8,513 nucleotides of DNA from a virus (taxonomy: Duplodnaviria > Heunggongvirae > Uroviricota > Caudoviricetes): IMG/VR virus record IMGVR_UViG_2563366822_000013, one strand, 5' to 3'. The position numbers and the translations under genes are program-made. Position 1 is the stretch's first letter, and each line of letters begins with the position of its first letter. The notes under the pieces are model-generated. The model worked only from the letters and a program-made list of their open reading frames with translations, did no database searches and was not told where the DNA came from. Shown one piece after another: positions 1-8,513 of the stretch.

Positions 1-1053
1 ATGACGTTACCACTAAGAGATTACTATCCTATTGAGCGCGCGGCAAAGTTATTAGACTGCGATATTGATGATCTTATTCATTGGGCTGTGACAGGCTGCA
101 TTCGTATTTGTATAAAAATTGAATCTGCATATGGAATATTAAATATCCCAGATGAAAAAGATGTGGTTAATTTCGATTGTCTGCGTAAGTTTCTGGATTC
201 AGAACCATGTAAATCACGGTTATCTGACCTTGATGCCATTTCAGAAAGGGCGGCAGAACACCATGGTTTTAATTATATAAAAACCAAGTCGAGAATTATA
301 TTTGATTCAATGTGCGAATCTCTAAGTCATTCATATGTAGCGCCCAAATTTGGTGACATAGCAATTGATACTGCATTTGCTTTGTTAAATTATTATAACA
401 GGGGGTTATATTATGGGGAAAATTATCACATATATAGTGTATATCGAATAGCAACGGATGAAAGAGCTGTGGCAGTTGTACCACCAGTATTTAAAGGTAT
501 TCAAGAAAAATACCATAAGTATTTTGTTGAAATAGGCGGCATTTTCGCTTTGGGGGGAAGTTTTTTTGCCAACTATGATTTTAATAAGAAGTTTAAAGCC
601 AACCGAATAATTAATAGCAATATTATAATTGCTTCTGACGTTGATATACATATAGGAGTAATTGTTACTGAGGATGTTTCTTTTGATATTGGTGATTTAT
701 ATATCTTAAAGAGTGATTTTTTAAAAATACAAAATGCTACAAGCTCCAATAGCGAGTTAAGAAAAGATTATGTTAATCCATTGGCAGACACTTTATATTT
801 GTGTGCGGGTAACAATATATTAAGCTCTGAGGATGGAGAGAAAGATATATGCACCAATAAAAACAATATAGAACGATTATCTAAAACAATGAAGGATTTT
901 TTTCGTGCGATGCTTGTTATTCATTATAAAGAACTCGAAAACAATCCGGTAAAACTTGCTGATATATTGACCGCGGAAGCAAAAGAGGCAGGACTCAATA
1001 TGCGCTTTGATAAAAGTACTATATCAAGATGGATTAAGGCATCATCTCAGTAA
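1..1053 (+). CDS. Hypothetical protein, 350 aa, low-GC cargo gene; HTH-like segments at both termini, central domain unrecognised
   Basis: Uninterrupted ORF from ATG at position 1 to TAA at 1051-1053. Visibly AT-rich (roughly 35 percent GC by eye) against about 50 percent for the rest of the window. N-terminal segment IERAAKLLDCDIDDLIHWAVTG and C-terminal segment GLNMRFDKSTISRWIK both have a helix-turn-helix look. No catalytic motif recognised. Start coincides with the window edge, so upstream context is unseen. Confidence 0.6.
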   Translation: MTLPLRDYYPIERAAKLLDCDIDDLIHWAVTGCIRICIKIESAYGILNIPDEKDVVNFDCLRKFLDSEPCKSRLSDLDAISERAAEHHGFNYIKTKSRIIFDSMCESLSHSYVAPKFGDIAIDTAFALLNYYNRGLYYGENYHIYSVYRIATDERAVAVVPPVFKGIQEKYHKYFVEIGGIFALGGSFFANYDFNKKFKANRIINSNIIIASDVDIHIGVIVTEDVSFDIGDLYILKSDFLKIQNATSSNSELRKDYVNPLADTLYLCAGNNILSSEDGEKDICTNKNNIERLSKTMKDFFRAMLVIHYKELENNPVKLADILTAEAKEAGLNMRFDKSTISRWIKASSQ

Positions 1054-1148
1054 GACCAGCAAGCATCTTAATAAGACCTTTAATACTTGCTTTCAAAACT
1101 CCGTAAAACAAAAATCTCCCCCGAAAGTTCAGAAACATAGGGGGAAAT

Positions 1149-1736: not shown

Positions 1737-1766
1737 TTGACTCGCTTTTTTGTCATGGCGTATCGT
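1737..1766 (+). promoter_or_regulatory. Putative sigma70 promoter for the downstream operon (-35 TTGACT, 18-bp spacer, -10 TATCGT), overlapped by palindrome GCAATATTGC
   Basis: TTGACT at 1737-1742 and TATCGT at 1761-1766; the perfect 10-bp palindrome GCAATATTGC lies immediately upstream of and overlapping the -35. Sequence-pattern call only. Confidence 0.3.
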
Positions 1767-1793
1767 TTGCCCGCACCTCATAAAACAGGTGCC

Positions 1794-1980
1794 GGGTTTG
1801 ACAGCCTGAATAAATTGGCGGGTAGCCGCTTGTATTCCGTAATGCGGTTTTTTTGTGCCCGTAATACCACCCTTTCCCGTATTATGGCGGGGCGTAATGG
1901 GGGAGCTTTATGCTCGCTGGTTTCCCAATTTGCCAGTCTGTCAACCCTGTTACGTCTCGCCACCACGTTTGACAGCGTTG
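1794..1980 (+). promoter_or_regulatory. Untranslated leader with three mutually complementary segments (A 1794-1818, B 1925-1947, C 1967-1977), analogous to P4 seqA/seqB/seqC immunity elements
   Basis: Segment A GGGTTTGACAGCCTGAATAAATTGG can pair with segment B CCAATTTGCCAGTCTGTCAACCC over 20 bp (one bulge, one mismatch, one small internal loop). Segment C repeats the 10-mer GTTTGACAGC of A and can pair 8 bp with B. A T7 run at 1848-1854 preceded by short GC stems follows A. The region sits between the putative promoter and the first small ORF. Confidence 0.3.
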
Positions 1981-2840: not shown

Positions 2841-3146
2841 ATGTCTGAAAATCAGAATGTCCGCAATATATACAAAAAAGAATACGCTGGCTTTTTCACA
2901 GAAGATTCCATTGGCAGTCTTGAGGATGTAATAAATGTTATTGCTCTTTTTTCAGCATTGACAGGTGAAATTAATACCAAAGAACGAATTACTGTACAAA
3001 GCGATGAAATGGAATCATTAACTAACATTCTTTATCGGGAATTACGAGCGATTAAATCAGGAATGCATCTTTCTGGCGGGATTTTTTCATGGCACAAAGC
3101 TGAAGCCGCAGGGATTGCTCGGAAACAAGAAGTAACGAGTAATTAA
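2841..3146 (+). CDS. Hypothetical protein, 101 aa, AT-rich
   Basis: GGGGAG Shine-Dalgarno at 2830-2835 and ATG at 2841. Composition (roughly 38 percent GC by eye) is lower than flanking genes. No recognisable motif. Confidence 0.55.
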   Translation: MSENQNVRNIYKKEYAGFFTEDSIGSLEDVINVIALFSALTGEINTKERITVQSDEMESLTNILYRELRAIKSGMHLSGGIFSWHKAEAAGIARKQEVTSN

Positions 3147-3190: not shown

Positions 3191-5860
3191 ATGAAACACA
3201 ACACCAGAAAAGAGATTATTAACCGTCTCATCCGTGATTACAATTTTAAAGAAGAAAATAATTATCTTCGCTATGGTGTTTGTCCGCAATGTGGAAAGAA
3301 AGAGCTGTTTACCAGCCTTGAAAGGCCGTACATCGTACACTGTGGGCGCGAAAATAAATGCGGTACAGACCTGCTGACCAAAGAACTTTACCCGGATGTG
3401 TTTTCATCATGGTCAGATCGCTATATCAGCACGAAAGACGAGCCATATGCAGCGGCGGCAGCTTACCTTCAGGAGGCGCGCAATATTGCTGTGGAGCCAC
3501 TGAAGGGGGCATTTACTCAGGAGCGATACCAGGACAAGGAAAACGGCGAACAGGCCGCTACTGTGCGTTTTACGCTGGCTGACGGCGTGTGGTGGGAGCG
3601 CATCATAGACCGACCGGAACGCTTCGCTCGCAAGGCGAATTTTTCCGGCAGCTACAAGGGGTTGTGGTGGGCTTATCCGGGAGCGGATTTAAGCAAGGCC
3701 AAAGAAATCTGGATTTGTGAGGGTATCTTTGATGCCATCAGCCTTAACCAGAATGGCATTGCGGCCGTTTCTGTCATGTCTGCCGTAAACTACCCGGATA
3801 AGGCGCTGGAAGAACTGGCGAAGCTGTGCGGTGATACCCCCCGTCCGGTTATCGTGTGGGCGCTGGATAACGGGCGTGCGGGTGAGCGTTACGCGAAAAA
3901 ACATGCAGAACGCAGTGCCGAAGATGGCTGGAGAACGGCAGCGGCGTTACCGGGTGAAAACAACAATAAACGCGACTGGAATGATTTACACATCGCCGGA
4001 AAGCTGCGTGGCCATGATGTGAAAAGATACCGCTATTACGGTGATTTATTGCTGGCGAAATCTCCAAGAGATAAGGCGCTAATAATGTTTTCCTTTCGTG
4101 AGCGAAAGGAATTTCATTTTACTTTTGATAACCGTGTTTTCTGGTTCAAGCTGGATATTGAGCGCCATATGAAGGCTGTTGAGCGTGTCATTAATGAGCG
4201 AAATGTTGACGAAGATGAAGCGCGAAAAATTGCACTTAAGGAATCCGGTGCAGTAAAAGAAATCGCAAACTGTAACCCAGCGCCGCTTTATTACATTCGA
4301 AACAATGACACGGATGAAGCATGGTATTACTTCCGCGTTACGTTCCCGGATGGCGCTACGGTAAAAAACACCTTTACATCAGGACAATTAACATCCTCAT
4401 CTGAATTTAAAAAACGCCTGTTACATGTGGCAAAAGGCGGCATTTATACCGGAACGACTACGCAGCTTGACGCATTAATAAAAAATGACCTTCCCGCAAT
4501 AAAAGAGGTTATTGGTCAGGATTTTATCGGATACAACAAGGCCATTGGGGCATGGCTGTTTAATGATATTGCTGTTTACAGGGGTAAAACTTATGAAATC
4601 AATGACGAGGATTATTTTGAAATTGATGGCATAAACGCAAAACCATTAAGCGAAAAACCCACATTACAGATTAACTACAAAAAACCGGATGAATTTACAG
4701 AGTCCTGGGTGGAAGATCTCTGGCTGGCTTTTGGTGAAAAGGGAATTATTACCCTGGCTTTCTGGTTGGGCTCCCTGTTCAGCGAACAAATCCGGGATAA
4801 AGAAGAATCCTTCCCCTTCCTTGAAGTCACCGGGGAGCCCGGAACGGGTAAATCAACACTGATTGATTTTTGCTGGCGGCTGTGCGGTCGTGACAACTAT
4901 GAAGGCGTTGATCCAACCAAAGGATCAGAGGCGGGCTGGAAGCGCACCTTTGGACAGGTCGCCGGATTACCTGTTGTTCTGATTGAAGCGGACCGGGGAG
5001 ACAATGCGCAAAAAAGAGGTGCGTTTGACTTCGATAACCTGAAAAGTCTCTATAACGGCGGTGGTATCGGCGTTCGTGGTGTTAAGGCCAACAATAACAA
5101 CACCTATGATCCGGATTTTAAGGGCGCCATCGTGATTGCGCAGAATGCGCGGGTAAACGCCTCTCCGGCAATTATTGAGCGCCTGATACGCATATACACC
5201 GATAAAAAACGCCATTCACCTGATACCCGCCTGGCGGCGAGACGGCTGGAACTTTACCCCGTCGAGAAGGTATCTGGGTTTATTCACCGGGCGGTAAGTC
5301 AGGAACGGGCGATTATGCAAACGTTCCTGGAAGTATCTCCAGCTGAAACGGAACGCCTTTGCGGATGCGAAAATATTCGCCATCCCCGCATCGCCAAAAA
5401 TCACGCACAACTTATCGCGCTGGTCAGGGCGCTGAAATGCGTTATTGATATCCCGGATGAATGGCTTGATGCCACATGTCTGGAGCTGGAACAAATGGCA
5501 ACAGCACAGGTTAAAGCGGCGGCGGCTGACTTGCCGGAAGTGATGGAGTTCTGGGAGGCGTTCGACTTCCTGGACGGCATAACAAAATACGGCGTAAACC
5601 ACTACGGCAAGGGATGCCGCGAAGGGATTGCTATCAGTATTCCGCAGCTGGCACAGGCTGCCGCCATTCACCGCGTGGAGATCCGAACCGATCGCGAAAT
5701 GATTGAGTTGCTCGGAGCCGGACGTTCCCGACCTTTGACAGGCCGCAAAACCATTCGTAGTGAGGTGTCCAGACAGGCAAACGCCGGAAAAGGAGTAGCC
5801 GAAGCCAGAGAACCTGAAGTACTGAAATGCCGGATATTCAGTTACAAGGAGGGGGCTTAA
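3191..5860 (+). CDS. Bifunctional replication primase-helicase (P4 alpha-like): N-terminal zinc-binding motif, TOPRIM primase domain, P-loop NTPase helicase; 889 aa
   Basis: Cys cluster CPQCGKK...HCGRENKCG from nt 3281; TOPRIM glutamate in IWICEGIFDA (E codon 3719-3721) and acidic motif VWALDNGRAGE; Walker A GEPGTGKST (4832-4858), Walker B VVLIEAD, and a downstream IAQN motif. Start set at ATG 3191 rather than GTG 3167, which lies inside the upstream hairpin. Confidence 0.9.
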   Translation: MKHNTRKEIINRLIRDYNFKEENNYLRYGVCPQCGKKELFTSLERPYIVHCGRENKCGTDLLTKELYPDVFSSWSDRYISTKDEPYAAAAAYLQEARNIAVEPLKGAFTQERYQDKENGEQAATVRFTLADGVWWERIIDRPERFARKANFSGSYKGLWWAYPGADLSKAKEIWICEGIFDAISLNQNGIAAVSVMSAVNYPDKALEELAKLCGDTPRPVIVWALDNGRAGERYAKKHAERSAEDGWRTAAALPGENNNKRDWNDLHIAGKLRGHDVKRYRYYGDLLLAKSPRDKALIMFSFRERKEFHFTFDNRVFWFKLDIERHMKAVERVINERNVDEDEARKIALKESGAVKEIANCNPAPLYYIRNNDTDEAWYYFRVTFPDGATVKNTFTSGQLTSSSEFKKRLLHVAKGGIYTGTTTQLDALIKNDLPAIKEVIGQDFIGYNKAIGAWLFNDIAVYRGKTYEINDEDYFEIDGINAKPLSEKPTLQINYKKPDEFTESWVEDLWLAFGEKGIITLAFWLGSLFSEQIRDKEESFPFLEVTGEPGTGKSTLIDFCWRLCGRDNYEGVDPTKGSEAGWKRTFGQVAGLPVVLIEADRGDNAQKRGAFDFDNLKSLYNGGGIGVRGVKANNNNTYDPDFKGAIVIAQNARVNASPAIIERLIRIYTDKKRHSPDTRLAARRLELYPVEKVSGFIHRAVSQERAIMQTFLEVSPAETERLCGCENIRHPRIAKNHAQLIALVRALKCVIDIPDEWLDATCLELEQMATAQVKAAAADLPEVMEFWEAFDFLDGITKYGVNHYGKGCREGIAISIPQLAQAAAIHRVEIRTDREMIELLGAGRSRPLTGRKTIRSEVSRQANAGKGVAEAREPEVLKCRIFSYKEGA

Positions 5861-5862
5861 AC

Positions 5863-6867
5863 ATGCCGATCAGAAAGCTGGATGATGGGCGATGGTTGCT
5901 CGATATCAGGCCATGCGGACGTAAAGGAAAGCGCGTCAGAAGAATATTTGACAGAAAATCGATAGCTGTAGCAACTGAACGGTACATCATAGCGAACGCC
6001 GAAAAACGCGAGTTTATACAGGGCTACCGCGACCGGAGAACCCTCAGCGATTTACTGGAGTTGTGGTGGGTTTATCACGGTCAGCACAGGCGAAAGGCAG
6101 GCACAGATAAACAGCAGCTTGGCAAAATCATTAATGAGCTTGGAGCTGACATGTTTGCGGTAGAGCTCGACAAATTAAAAATCATTGCATGGCGATCGCA
6201 GAAAATTGCGGAAGGGCTAAAGCCGTCCTCAGCAAACAGATATATGAACAGATTATCAGGGATGTTTACAACCCTGAAAAAGATCGGTTTGTGGGATGCA
6301 GAACATCCTGTTCGCGGTATTCCTGTTCTTTACGTAAAGCAGCGAGAGATGGCCTTTTTATCAAAAAACGAGGTCACATTGTTGCTTGACAGACTGAATG
6401 GAGATCAACGAAGGGTTGCGCTCTTATGTCTTTGCACCGGAGCTCGCTGGAGTGAAGCCAGCAGATTACACGGAGAGCAAATAGTTCATAACAGAATCAC
6501 GTTTCTGGAAACCAAAAACGGCAGGAAAAGAACGGTGCCCGTGTCGCAGGAGATATGCAATATCGTAAAAACAAAAGAAACCGGGCGACTGTTTGATGTG
6601 AAGTACAGAGAGTTTTGCCGGGCATTAAAAAAAATAAAACCCGATTTACCGAGGGGGCAGGCTGCGCATGTATTGCGGCATACATTCGCCAGTCACTTTG
6701 TGATGAACGGTGGCAACATTCTTGCGCTACAAAAAATCCTTGGGCATGCGACAATTCAGCAGACTATGGCATACGCACATTTTGCACCGGATTATCTGGC
6801 AGATGCCATGAGATTTAACCCGGTAGCCAACATAGTGATCACCGAAGAAAAAGAGCCAGCAGAGTAA
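5863..6867 (+). CDS. int: Tyrosine recombinase / phage integrase, P2-type; 334 aa
   Basis: AAGGAGGGGG Shine-Dalgarno embedded in the primase 3-prime end; ATG 5863 lies 2 nt after the primase stop. N-terminus MPIRKLDDGRWLLDIRPCGRKGKR resembles P2-family integrases. Box I TGARWSEA and box II HVLRHTFASHF...LGHATIQQTMAYAHF with the catalytic Tyr codon at 6772-6774. Confidence 0.93.
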   Translation: MPIRKLDDGRWLLDIRPCGRKGKRVRRIFDRKSIAVATERYIIANAEKREFIQGYRDRRTLSDLLELWWVYHGQHRRKAGTDKQQLGKIINELGADMFAVELDKLKIIAWRSQKIAEGLKPSSANRYMNRLSGMFTTLKKIGLWDAEHPVRGIPVLYVKQREMAFLSKNEVTLLLDRLNGDQRRVALLCLCTGARWSEASRLHGEQIVHNRITFLETKNGRKRTVPVSQEICNIVKTKETGRLFDVKYREFCRALKKIKPDLPRGQAAHVLRHTFASHFVMNGGNILALQKILGHATIQQTMAYAHFAPDYLADAMRFNPVANIVITEEKEPAE

Positions 6868-8012: not shown

Positions 8013-8046
8013 AGGTCAAATTTCACACCAGTAAGAGGAGCGTGAT

Positions 8047-8229
8047 ATGTCTTTCCCTTGCCCGGCCTGTGGCGCTTCAGCCCGCACCCGTGGTCGTTCG
8101 TTGGAAGAACACGAACAAAATATCTACAAAACGTATTACCAGTGCAATAATATTGAGTGTGGGGCCTGTTTTTGTACGCTTGAGTCGTTTGTACGCATTA
8201 CTAAGCGCAGGAAGTCGAAAACTTCATAG
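8047..8229 (+). CDS. ogr: Ogr/Delta-family zinc-finger late-gene transcriptional activator, 60 aa
   Basis: Strong Shine-Dalgarno and ATG 8047. Protein MSFPCPACGASARTRGR...YYQCNNIECGACFCTLESF carries the CxxC...CxxxxC zinc finger and the surrounding pattern of P2 Ogr (CPLC...YHQCQNVNCSATF.TYES). Confidence 0.8.
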   Translation: MSFPCPACGASARTRGRSLEEHEQNIYKTYYQCNNIECGACFCTLESFVRITKRRKSKTS

Positions 8230-8279: not shown

Positions 8280-8513
8280 TTACGTCGTGTGGTTCTGGTC
8301 ATTTGCCCAGGCCCACACATCCCCCGCTACATTGCGTCCGTTGCAGTCTTCTTCCTGCGTTTCCCCGGCCTTAATTCCCTGACTGATAAACATTCTGACG
8401 CACTGGGAGTAGTTCATCTCTCTGTCCTGACATATCTGATTTATTTTATGGTCGATTTCGTGCGGGATACGAATACAGCGTAATACGCATCGCATTTTCT
8501 TTTGTTTTTTCAT
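8280..8513 (-). CDS. Hypothetical small DNA-binding protein, ribbon-helix-helix-like, 77 aa; start at or beyond the window edge
   Basis: Minus-strand ORF MKKQKKMRCVLRCIRIPHEIDHKINQICQDREMNYSQCVRMFISQGIK has a beta-strand/helix/helix pattern compatible with CopG/Arc-type RHH folds. It is more protein-like than the overlapping plus-strand ORFs and is convergent with the ogr-like gene. The start codon is the last three bases of the window. Confidence 0.45.
   Translation of the reverse strand: MKKQKKMRCVLRCIRIPHEIDHKINQICQDREMNYSQCVRMFISQGIKAGETQEEDCNGRNVAGDVWAWANDQNHTT

Follow-up and report, generated by a model that had tools for sequence, protein, structure and literature searches.

The window (the whole 8513-nucleotide stretch analyzed here) opens with an ATG-initiated open reading frame, ORF X, which occupies positions 1 to 1053 on the + strand directly 5′ of alpA and encodes a 350-residue protein of an uncharacterized family in the slot between an integrase gene (int) and alpA. 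At the base composition of ORF X, 350 codons would stay open by chance with a probability of ≈1.4e-13, and the reading frame is intact in 30 E. coli genomes. A dN/dS of 0.28 to 0.46 between ORF X alleles (Nei–Gojobori) marks the ORF as coding and under purifying selection. The downstream neighbor, alpA (1149–1469, + strand), encodes 106 residues that match PF05930 (E 3.3e-07) and phrog_2790 (E 4.6e-30), and is the probable functional partner or target of X. An initial annotation of this DNA had described a low-GC 350-residue gene upstream of alpA, and this description is accurate: the GC content of ORF X is 0.337 (GC3 0.26) versus ≈0.49 in the neighboring genes (alpA, 0.50; primase, 0.49) and 0.455 in the whole window.

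The same DNA is found in 30 of 5426 complete E. coli genomes, and in strain JP538 the element (locus L001) lies between the chromosomal genes gcd and hpt. In JP538, a tyrosine integrase gene is followed, after a 16-nt gap, by X and alpA; then come an Icd-like ORF, four small ORFs, and a Toprim primase, and after these the genes for a second integrase, Ogr/Delta, a homolog of the P2-type capsid protein, and MazEF. The + strand carries int, X, and alpA as well as the genes downstream of them. The first of these integrases is P4-type and ends 16 bp before the X start codon. It is the sole gene upstream of X, beyond which lies chromosomal gcd, so that, for the partners (if any) that the initial annotation placed upstream of the window, the element's own integrase is the sole candidate. 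The window primase matches phrog_1139, and a Delta homolog is encoded ≈7 kb downstream of X, past the primase. The Icd-like ORF (window 1760–1967) holds a P4/P1-type RNA immunity system, in which an Rfam scan identifies a C4 antisense RNA at 1880 to 1967 (70.5 bits; gathering score 45), isrK at 1773 to 1854 (52.3 bits; gathering score 50), and a subthreshold a1/b1 target match at 1760 to 1812. These contents (AlpA, primase, Ogr/Delta, C4/isrK RNA, and an integrase upstream) are those of an int–alpA–primase phage satellite, and the element is a P4-like satellite with a gene order unlike that of P4 itself.

Several further features lie elsewhere in the element. The second tyrosine integrase (5827–6867; Int_N and Phage_integrase, 346 residues) has a 34-nt overlap with the primase gene at the latter's 3′ end and is also present in a Salmonella relative (L010); secondary integrases are reported to be rare in PICIs (PMC10111431). 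An ORF of 101 codons at 2841 to 3146, without a family match, is likewise low in GC (0.37; GC3 0.27) and is allelic among related elements (57–92% identity), independent of the X allele. The Ogr/Delta zinc-finger protein is encoded at 8047 to 8229 on the + strand (PF04606, E 2.4e-11), and a 77-residue ORF on the − strand (8280–8513), with a weak CopG-antitoxin match, runs to the last base of the window. A homolog of the P2-type major capsid protein (PF05125) is found in L003 (8885–10823), L005 (6894–8832), L010 (8501–10439), L028 (6636–8596), and L001 (23389–24660); it directly follows alpA in several satellites, beside an ORF of 273 to 291 residues that is a possible scaffold, and is located near the right end of the window's own element, outside the window. 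A MazF/MazE toxin–antitoxin pair (L001 24704–25296) adjoins hpt at the element's right end, which is likely a true cargo position.

We read the gene neighborhoods of 16 loci that carry members of the X family. In 15 of these, spanning more than 10 genera, the order is int (of the Arm-DNA-bind_3 type), an X family member, and AlpA, all on one strand. The slot loci derive from E. coli (five), Salmonella (two), Yersinia, Morganella, Kluyvera/Erwinia, Pectobacterium, an Aeromonas-type contig, Enterovibrio, a Salinivibrio-type contig, a K. variicola plasmid, and a GC-rich Rhodocyclales metagenome-assembled genome. They occupy several different integration sites and harbor three unrelated replication modules (Toprim_2; Zn_Ribbon_Prim/DUF927; and D5_N/Pox_D5 or VapE), and the int–X gap is 3 to 21 nt in most and ≈95 nt in four. 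The 16th locus (L017 4962–5783) is an orphan member of 273 residues in K. pneumoniae, without int or alpA and ≈1.1 kb from tRNA-Arg(CCT), which is found in several Klebsiella records and is probably the relic of a decayed island. The JP538-type integrase is carried by 43 E. coli genomes, and those without this X allele have another gene of ≈350 codons in its place. These alternative genes are homologous to X (26–29% identity; 65% for one allele), with conservation of the N and C termini and a few central motifs. In one E. coli PICI that has been studied, the int–alpA interval holds EcCIMP1_002, a tiny unrelated ORF. Pattern scans of viral contigs and of genome and metagenome collections added few new loci, and no phage record encodes a member of the family.

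The initial annotation had regarded the gene as variable cargo of a P4-type hotspot, separately acquired on the evidence of its composition. The comparison argues against the first of these claims: a single family fills the slot in 15 of 15 loci, and a homolog of 218 to 373 residues with the same GC dip is found in every related element examined, an outcome that the initial annotation had itself named as counting against its reading. The dip is seen in Yersinia (X, 0.34 versus int, 0.43 and alpA, 0.51), Morganella (X, 0.34 versus 0.52 for both int and alpA), and Rhodocyclales (X, 0.52 versus int, 0.60 and alpA, 0.56), with low GC in Salmonella as well. Since it recurs in every lineage, the low GC of X is not evidence of recent acquisition, and recent import can be ruled out as its cause. 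What survives of the second claim is that X has a history of its own relative to its flanks, as described below. Known cargo is found elsewhere in such islands, including a type I restriction–modification system after the primase in Enterovibrio (L032) and MazEF at the right end of L001. We conclude that X is the conserved third gene of a satellite integration zone (integrase–X–AlpA) and not swappable cargo, and thus represents a third gene family that is constant in this zone in many gammaproteobacterial and some betaproteobacterial islands.

A deep HMMER search retrieved 253 cluster representatives at E ≤ 1e-3, 49 at E ≤ 1e-10, and 22 at E ≤ 1e-30, giving a family of at least 253 clusters at 50% identity. 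Hosts include E. coli, Salmonella, Yersinia, Morganella, Pectobacterium, Providencia, Gilliamella/Frischella, Aeromonas, Enterovibrio, and Salinivibrio, and all named members are annotated “hypothetical protein.” Searches of Pfam, NCBIfam, PHROGs, and PADLOC with X, 24 to 39 family members, isolated N- and C-terminal modules, and alternative C termini gave no meaningful match. The best Pfam hit for X, 24 members, and isolated N-terminal modules was MerR_1 at a nonsignificant E of 0.2, and PADLOC, which had been put forward as a check on a defense function, matched neither X itself nor any of 39 family members. Searches of PDB sequences with whole-protein, N-module, and C-module profiles returned chance matches only, the AlphaFold model has no significant fold match, and no catalytic-looking motif or effector-like domain is found in X. 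The earlier judgment that no function can be assigned therefore still stands, with no family model, PDB sequence, or fold matching X.

An AlphaFold2 model calculated with a 39-sequence alignment (pLDDT 85, pTM 0.70; pLDDT 33 with four sequences) divides X into four parts. The N-terminal module (residues 1–48; window 1–144) defines the family and carries the motif M-x-LPLRxYYPxxRAAxLLxCxxDDLxHWAxxGxI, with residues 8 to 48 predicted to form a winged-helix-like strand–helix–helix–hairpin. Residues D24 (146 of 147 sequences), C20 (140 of 147), and H27 (139 of 147) are nearly invariant. The presumed recognition helix has a mean net charge of −2.7 and is never positive. As this helix is acidic in all 147 members, we read the conserved N-terminal module as probably a protein-contact surface built on a predicted winged-helix-like scaffold. 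AlpA proteins carry a net charge of +7 to +8. The central, allele-specific region (residues 49–261; window 145–783) is predicted to consist of a helical bundle (59–134) and an α/β domain (136–250), within which G180, L233, K237, D239, and F240 are kept in the family; the central domain that the initial annotation could not assign is thus divided in two, with no fold match. A linker (residues 262–289; window 784–867) that is predicted to be disordered (pLDDT <50) leads to a C-terminal three-helix module (residues 295–346; window 883–1038) with the motif ...NPxKLAxxLxAEA...FDKSTISRWIK. This module is basic (family mean net charge +3.5, pI 9.6), gives subthreshold matches to HTH_32, and is a possible helix–turn–helix (HTH) domain that may bind nucleic acid. 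HTH-like segments had been proposed at both ends; the model does place compact modules at 8 to 48 and 295 to 346, but no HTH profile is significant for either. The family is modular, with at least three unrelated C-terminal modules found behind the same N-terminal module, and selection is strong on the N-terminal module, with a variable center and C terminus.

The element of E. coli strain E9 illustrates the extent to which X is uncoupled from its neighbors: between JP538 and E9, Int is 97% and AlpA 100% identical, versus 28.7% for X, and across related elements the corresponding values are 91 to 97%, 98 to 100%, and 26 to 29%. JP538/E9 DNA identity falls from ≈100% to 40 to 50% within the last ≈200 nt of int and is back to 97% at window ≈1110 to 1125, ≈30 nt before the alpA start. 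Because identity returns only there, the first ≈56 nt of the X–alpA spacer belong to the swapped cassette. The allele of strain A36 is a mosaic, with ends that are at least 92 to 100% identical to the window and a center of 53 to 78%; in this pair, dS is 1.34 in the center and 0.08 to 0.30 in the ends. For the N-terminal module of X, dN/dS is 0.07 to 0.23, with 0.06 to 0.20 for int and 0.08 to 0.21 for alpA (Nei–Gojobori). With dN/dS below 1 throughout and high dS in the center, positive selection is ruled out as the source of the divergence; these values instead indicate that X alleles are old, held under purifying selection, and moved by recombination, rather than products of rapid local evolution. 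X behaves as an exchangeable allelic cassette, of a family with no annotation, Pfam domain, or known fold.

The allele-linked part of the X–alpA spacer (window 1054–1110, + strand) is swapped with the X allele, with its right recombination boundary at ≈1110 to 1125. It carries two copies of TAAGACC, the first reaching back into the end of X (1051–1057 and 1072–1078), and a weak hairpin at 1058 to 1091. Short repeats just past the X stop codon are lineage-specific, each lineage having its own, and in E9-type alleles the repeat forms a perfect 13-bp hairpin. TAAGACC was considered as an operator and rejected, as two copies in 29 kb is the chance expectation, and no motif recurs between the spacer and the int promoter or att region. 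Closer to alpA, a hairpin predicted at window 1117 to 1145 (+ strand) pairs UCUCCCCC with the alpA Shine–Dalgarno sequence GGGGGA. This Shine–Dalgarno is base-paired in four of four folded spacers with a partner sequence that differs by allele, for example, CUUCUCCUU/AGGAGGAA in E9, and analogous hairpins are found in L002 at ≈6516 to 6580 and in L008 at ≈8035 to 8085; the fold of the Morganella spacer has a z score of −5.6. On the basis of these folding predictions, the paired Shine–Dalgarno may block AlpA translation from read-through int–X transcripts. Scans for consensus promoters and terminators around int–X–alpA performed at chance level, and no terminator on the + strand separates these three genes.

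In published surveys of Gram-negative satellites, the integration zone is said to comprise int and AlpA (PMC10111431, PMC6092414), and EcCICFT073 and other well-studied E. coli PICIs are described with these two genes only (PMC6092414, PMC10111431), so that X is not universally required. The closest counterparts are the integrase-overlapping or integrase-contiguous genes (IOLG/ICG) of Vibrio PICMI, which fall into 13 sequence families (PMC10803314). Excision of PICMI115 depends on the gene that separates its int from alpA, which is reported to be expressed constitutively with int (PMC10803314), and this requirement in one Vibrio satellite is the sole experimental hint for a gene in this slot. 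Like an IOLG/ICG, X is very diverse in sequence and lies between int and alpA on the same strand, abutting int, in an int–alpA–primase satellite; moreover, X family members are found in islands of Enterovibrio and Salinivibrio that follow the PICMI gene order, a likeness of slot and layout. Unlike the PICMI115 IOLG, X is contiguous with int (16-nt gap) rather than overlapping, and its element is larger than a PICMI and P4-like, with C4-type RNA immunity, an Ogr/Delta protein, and a second integrase. Modular architecture and allelic-cassette behavior, as found here for X, have not been described for IOLG. By this comparison, X is best filed as closest to the IOLG/ICG kind, found in enterobacterial P4-like satellites. 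X differs from AlpA/Vis/excisionase proteins (PF05930, PF12728; MerR superfamily) in having no significant match to their profiles, in a would-be DNA-reading helix that is acidic (147 of 147) where AlpA is +7 to +8, and in being three to five times longer with two further domains.

We tentatively favor a model in which X is a factor that controls excision in conjunction with the integrase and AlpA and whose center is allele-specific. A shared int–X transcript, from which X would be made together with the integrase, is suggested by the short gap (8–21 nt), a Shine–Dalgarno of X's own, and the lack of a terminator. X would join Int and AlpA in governing how the element excises and integrates, its acidic N-terminal module contacting a partner common to all islands (basic AlpA and the P4-type integrase are candidates), its basic C-terminal three-helix module binding nucleic acid, and its diverged, recombination-swapped center conferring allele specificity, perhaps toward helper phages or competing satellites. 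This model draws on the constant int–X–alpA slot in 15 loci, the conserved N-terminal module, and the PICMI115 precedent, as well as on the lack of a catalytic-looking motif or family match and the location of known cargo elsewhere in the same islands. On the other hand, a pure Int/AlpA cofactor would be expected to coevolve with Int and AlpA, whereas X is only 29% identical between elements in which they are 97 to 100% identical; the K. pneumoniae orphan persists without int or alpA, and PICIs have been described without X. Since a plain cofactor role leaves the allele diversity unexplained, readings of X as a sensor or as a defense factor stay alive. The family is a candidate for the step that gives satellite induction or excision its specificity, and one that lends itself to testing in E. 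coli, where genetic work is easy.

Deep allele diversity uncoupled from conserved flanks is the pattern of immunity or specificity determinants, and the allele is swapped along with the first ≈56 nt of the alpA spacer, which carry lineage-specific repeats. Both are in keeping with a helper-phage sensor that gates alpA in the manner of Stl, holding alpA (or AlpA) inactive until a helper protein binds the center and releases it, each allele then defining which helpers induce the satellite. X shares with Stl/Rpr of Gram-positive PICIs (SaPIs) a position beside int, strong sequence divergence between related islands, and an HTH-like end module joined to a variable region that possibly binds helper proteins, and its acidic N-terminal module is a possible binding surface for AlpA, which is very basic. 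How helpers switch on alpA in Gram-negative satellites, and through what repressor if any, is stated to be open (PMC6092414, PMC10803314), and the initial suggestion of a regulator is still a live option. However, X has no sequence or fold similarity to Stl/Rpr and is codirectional with alpA and the genes downstream, while Stl is divergent; immunity of the RNA-based P4 type is, moreover, already encoded in this element 3′ of alpA (C4, 70.5 bits; isrK, 52.3 bits). The spacer repeats occur at chance frequency and partly fold as hairpins, linkage alone accounts for a spacer that varies with the allele, and PICIs without X still show helper-induced alpA (PMC6092414). We consider such a sensor unlikely, and a broader version more doubtful still, namely that the X family is the missing helper-sensing switch of Gram-negative P4/PICI-type satellites, with the N-terminal module restraining AlpA/Int and the center recognizing a helper protein. 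If true, the allele would decide which phages mobilize the satellite, and the persistence of old alleles would reflect an arms race with helpers.

The leading idea of the initial annotation, a one-gene factor directed against phages or satellites that acts in abortive infection, exclusion, or intersatellite competition and has become fixed beside int, is in our assessment improbable. In P4, the documented defense hotspot lies between int and psu–delta–sid, at the gop–beta–cII locus (PMC13586616), and X resembles this int–psu hotspot in adjoining the integrase, in its low GC, and in being swapped among elements with near-identical core genes, a behavior also reminiscent of P2 defense loci (PMC13586616). 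Of eight genes of unknown function that have been assayed from the int-proximal P4 hotspot, six gave protection, the orphan copy is kept in K. pneumoniae without int or alpA, and the coexistence of old alleles suggests balancing selection. True hotspots hold unrelated systems, however, whereas one family with one N-terminal module, always a single gene and always present, occupies the int–alpA junction in 15 of 15 loci from Gamma- and Betaproteobacteria. Furthermore, no defense model, effector-like domain, or catalytic motif is matched (PADLOC, 0 of 39), X is absent from phage records, and known defense and toxin–antitoxin cargo is found at other positions. A low-GC gene of unknown function beside a satellite integrase should not be counted automatically as defense cargo. 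A final alternative holds that the DNA matters more than the protein, X being a largely passive AT-rich spacer gene, e.g., one that is silenced by H-NS and insulates inducible alpA from constitutive int. The GC dip is present in every lineage, even on a 60% GC background, and sequestration of the alpA ribosome-binding site in all spacers examined suggests that insulation from upstream transcription matters; but purifying selection on X (dN/dS 0.28–0.46 overall and 0.07–0.23 in the N-terminal module) makes this very unlikely, as do several residues invariant in 147 sequences, a confident AlphaFold model, and a frame that is open in all 30 E. coli genomes.

Two additional features flank the coding sequences on the integrase side. 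A tandem 11-nt repeat, CGTGTATCAAT × 2 (L001 12750–12772), lies 13 nt 5′ of the integrase start codon and could be a regulatory or arm-type site. The four int–X gaps of ≈95 nt (L006 6904–7000, L008 6908–7000, L016 3884–3982, and L029 1496–1590) hold a conserved structured motif, CTAG...GAAAAGCGGG...CCCGCCTG, for which RNAalifold predicts 17 base pairs, seven of them with compensatory change among only four sequences.
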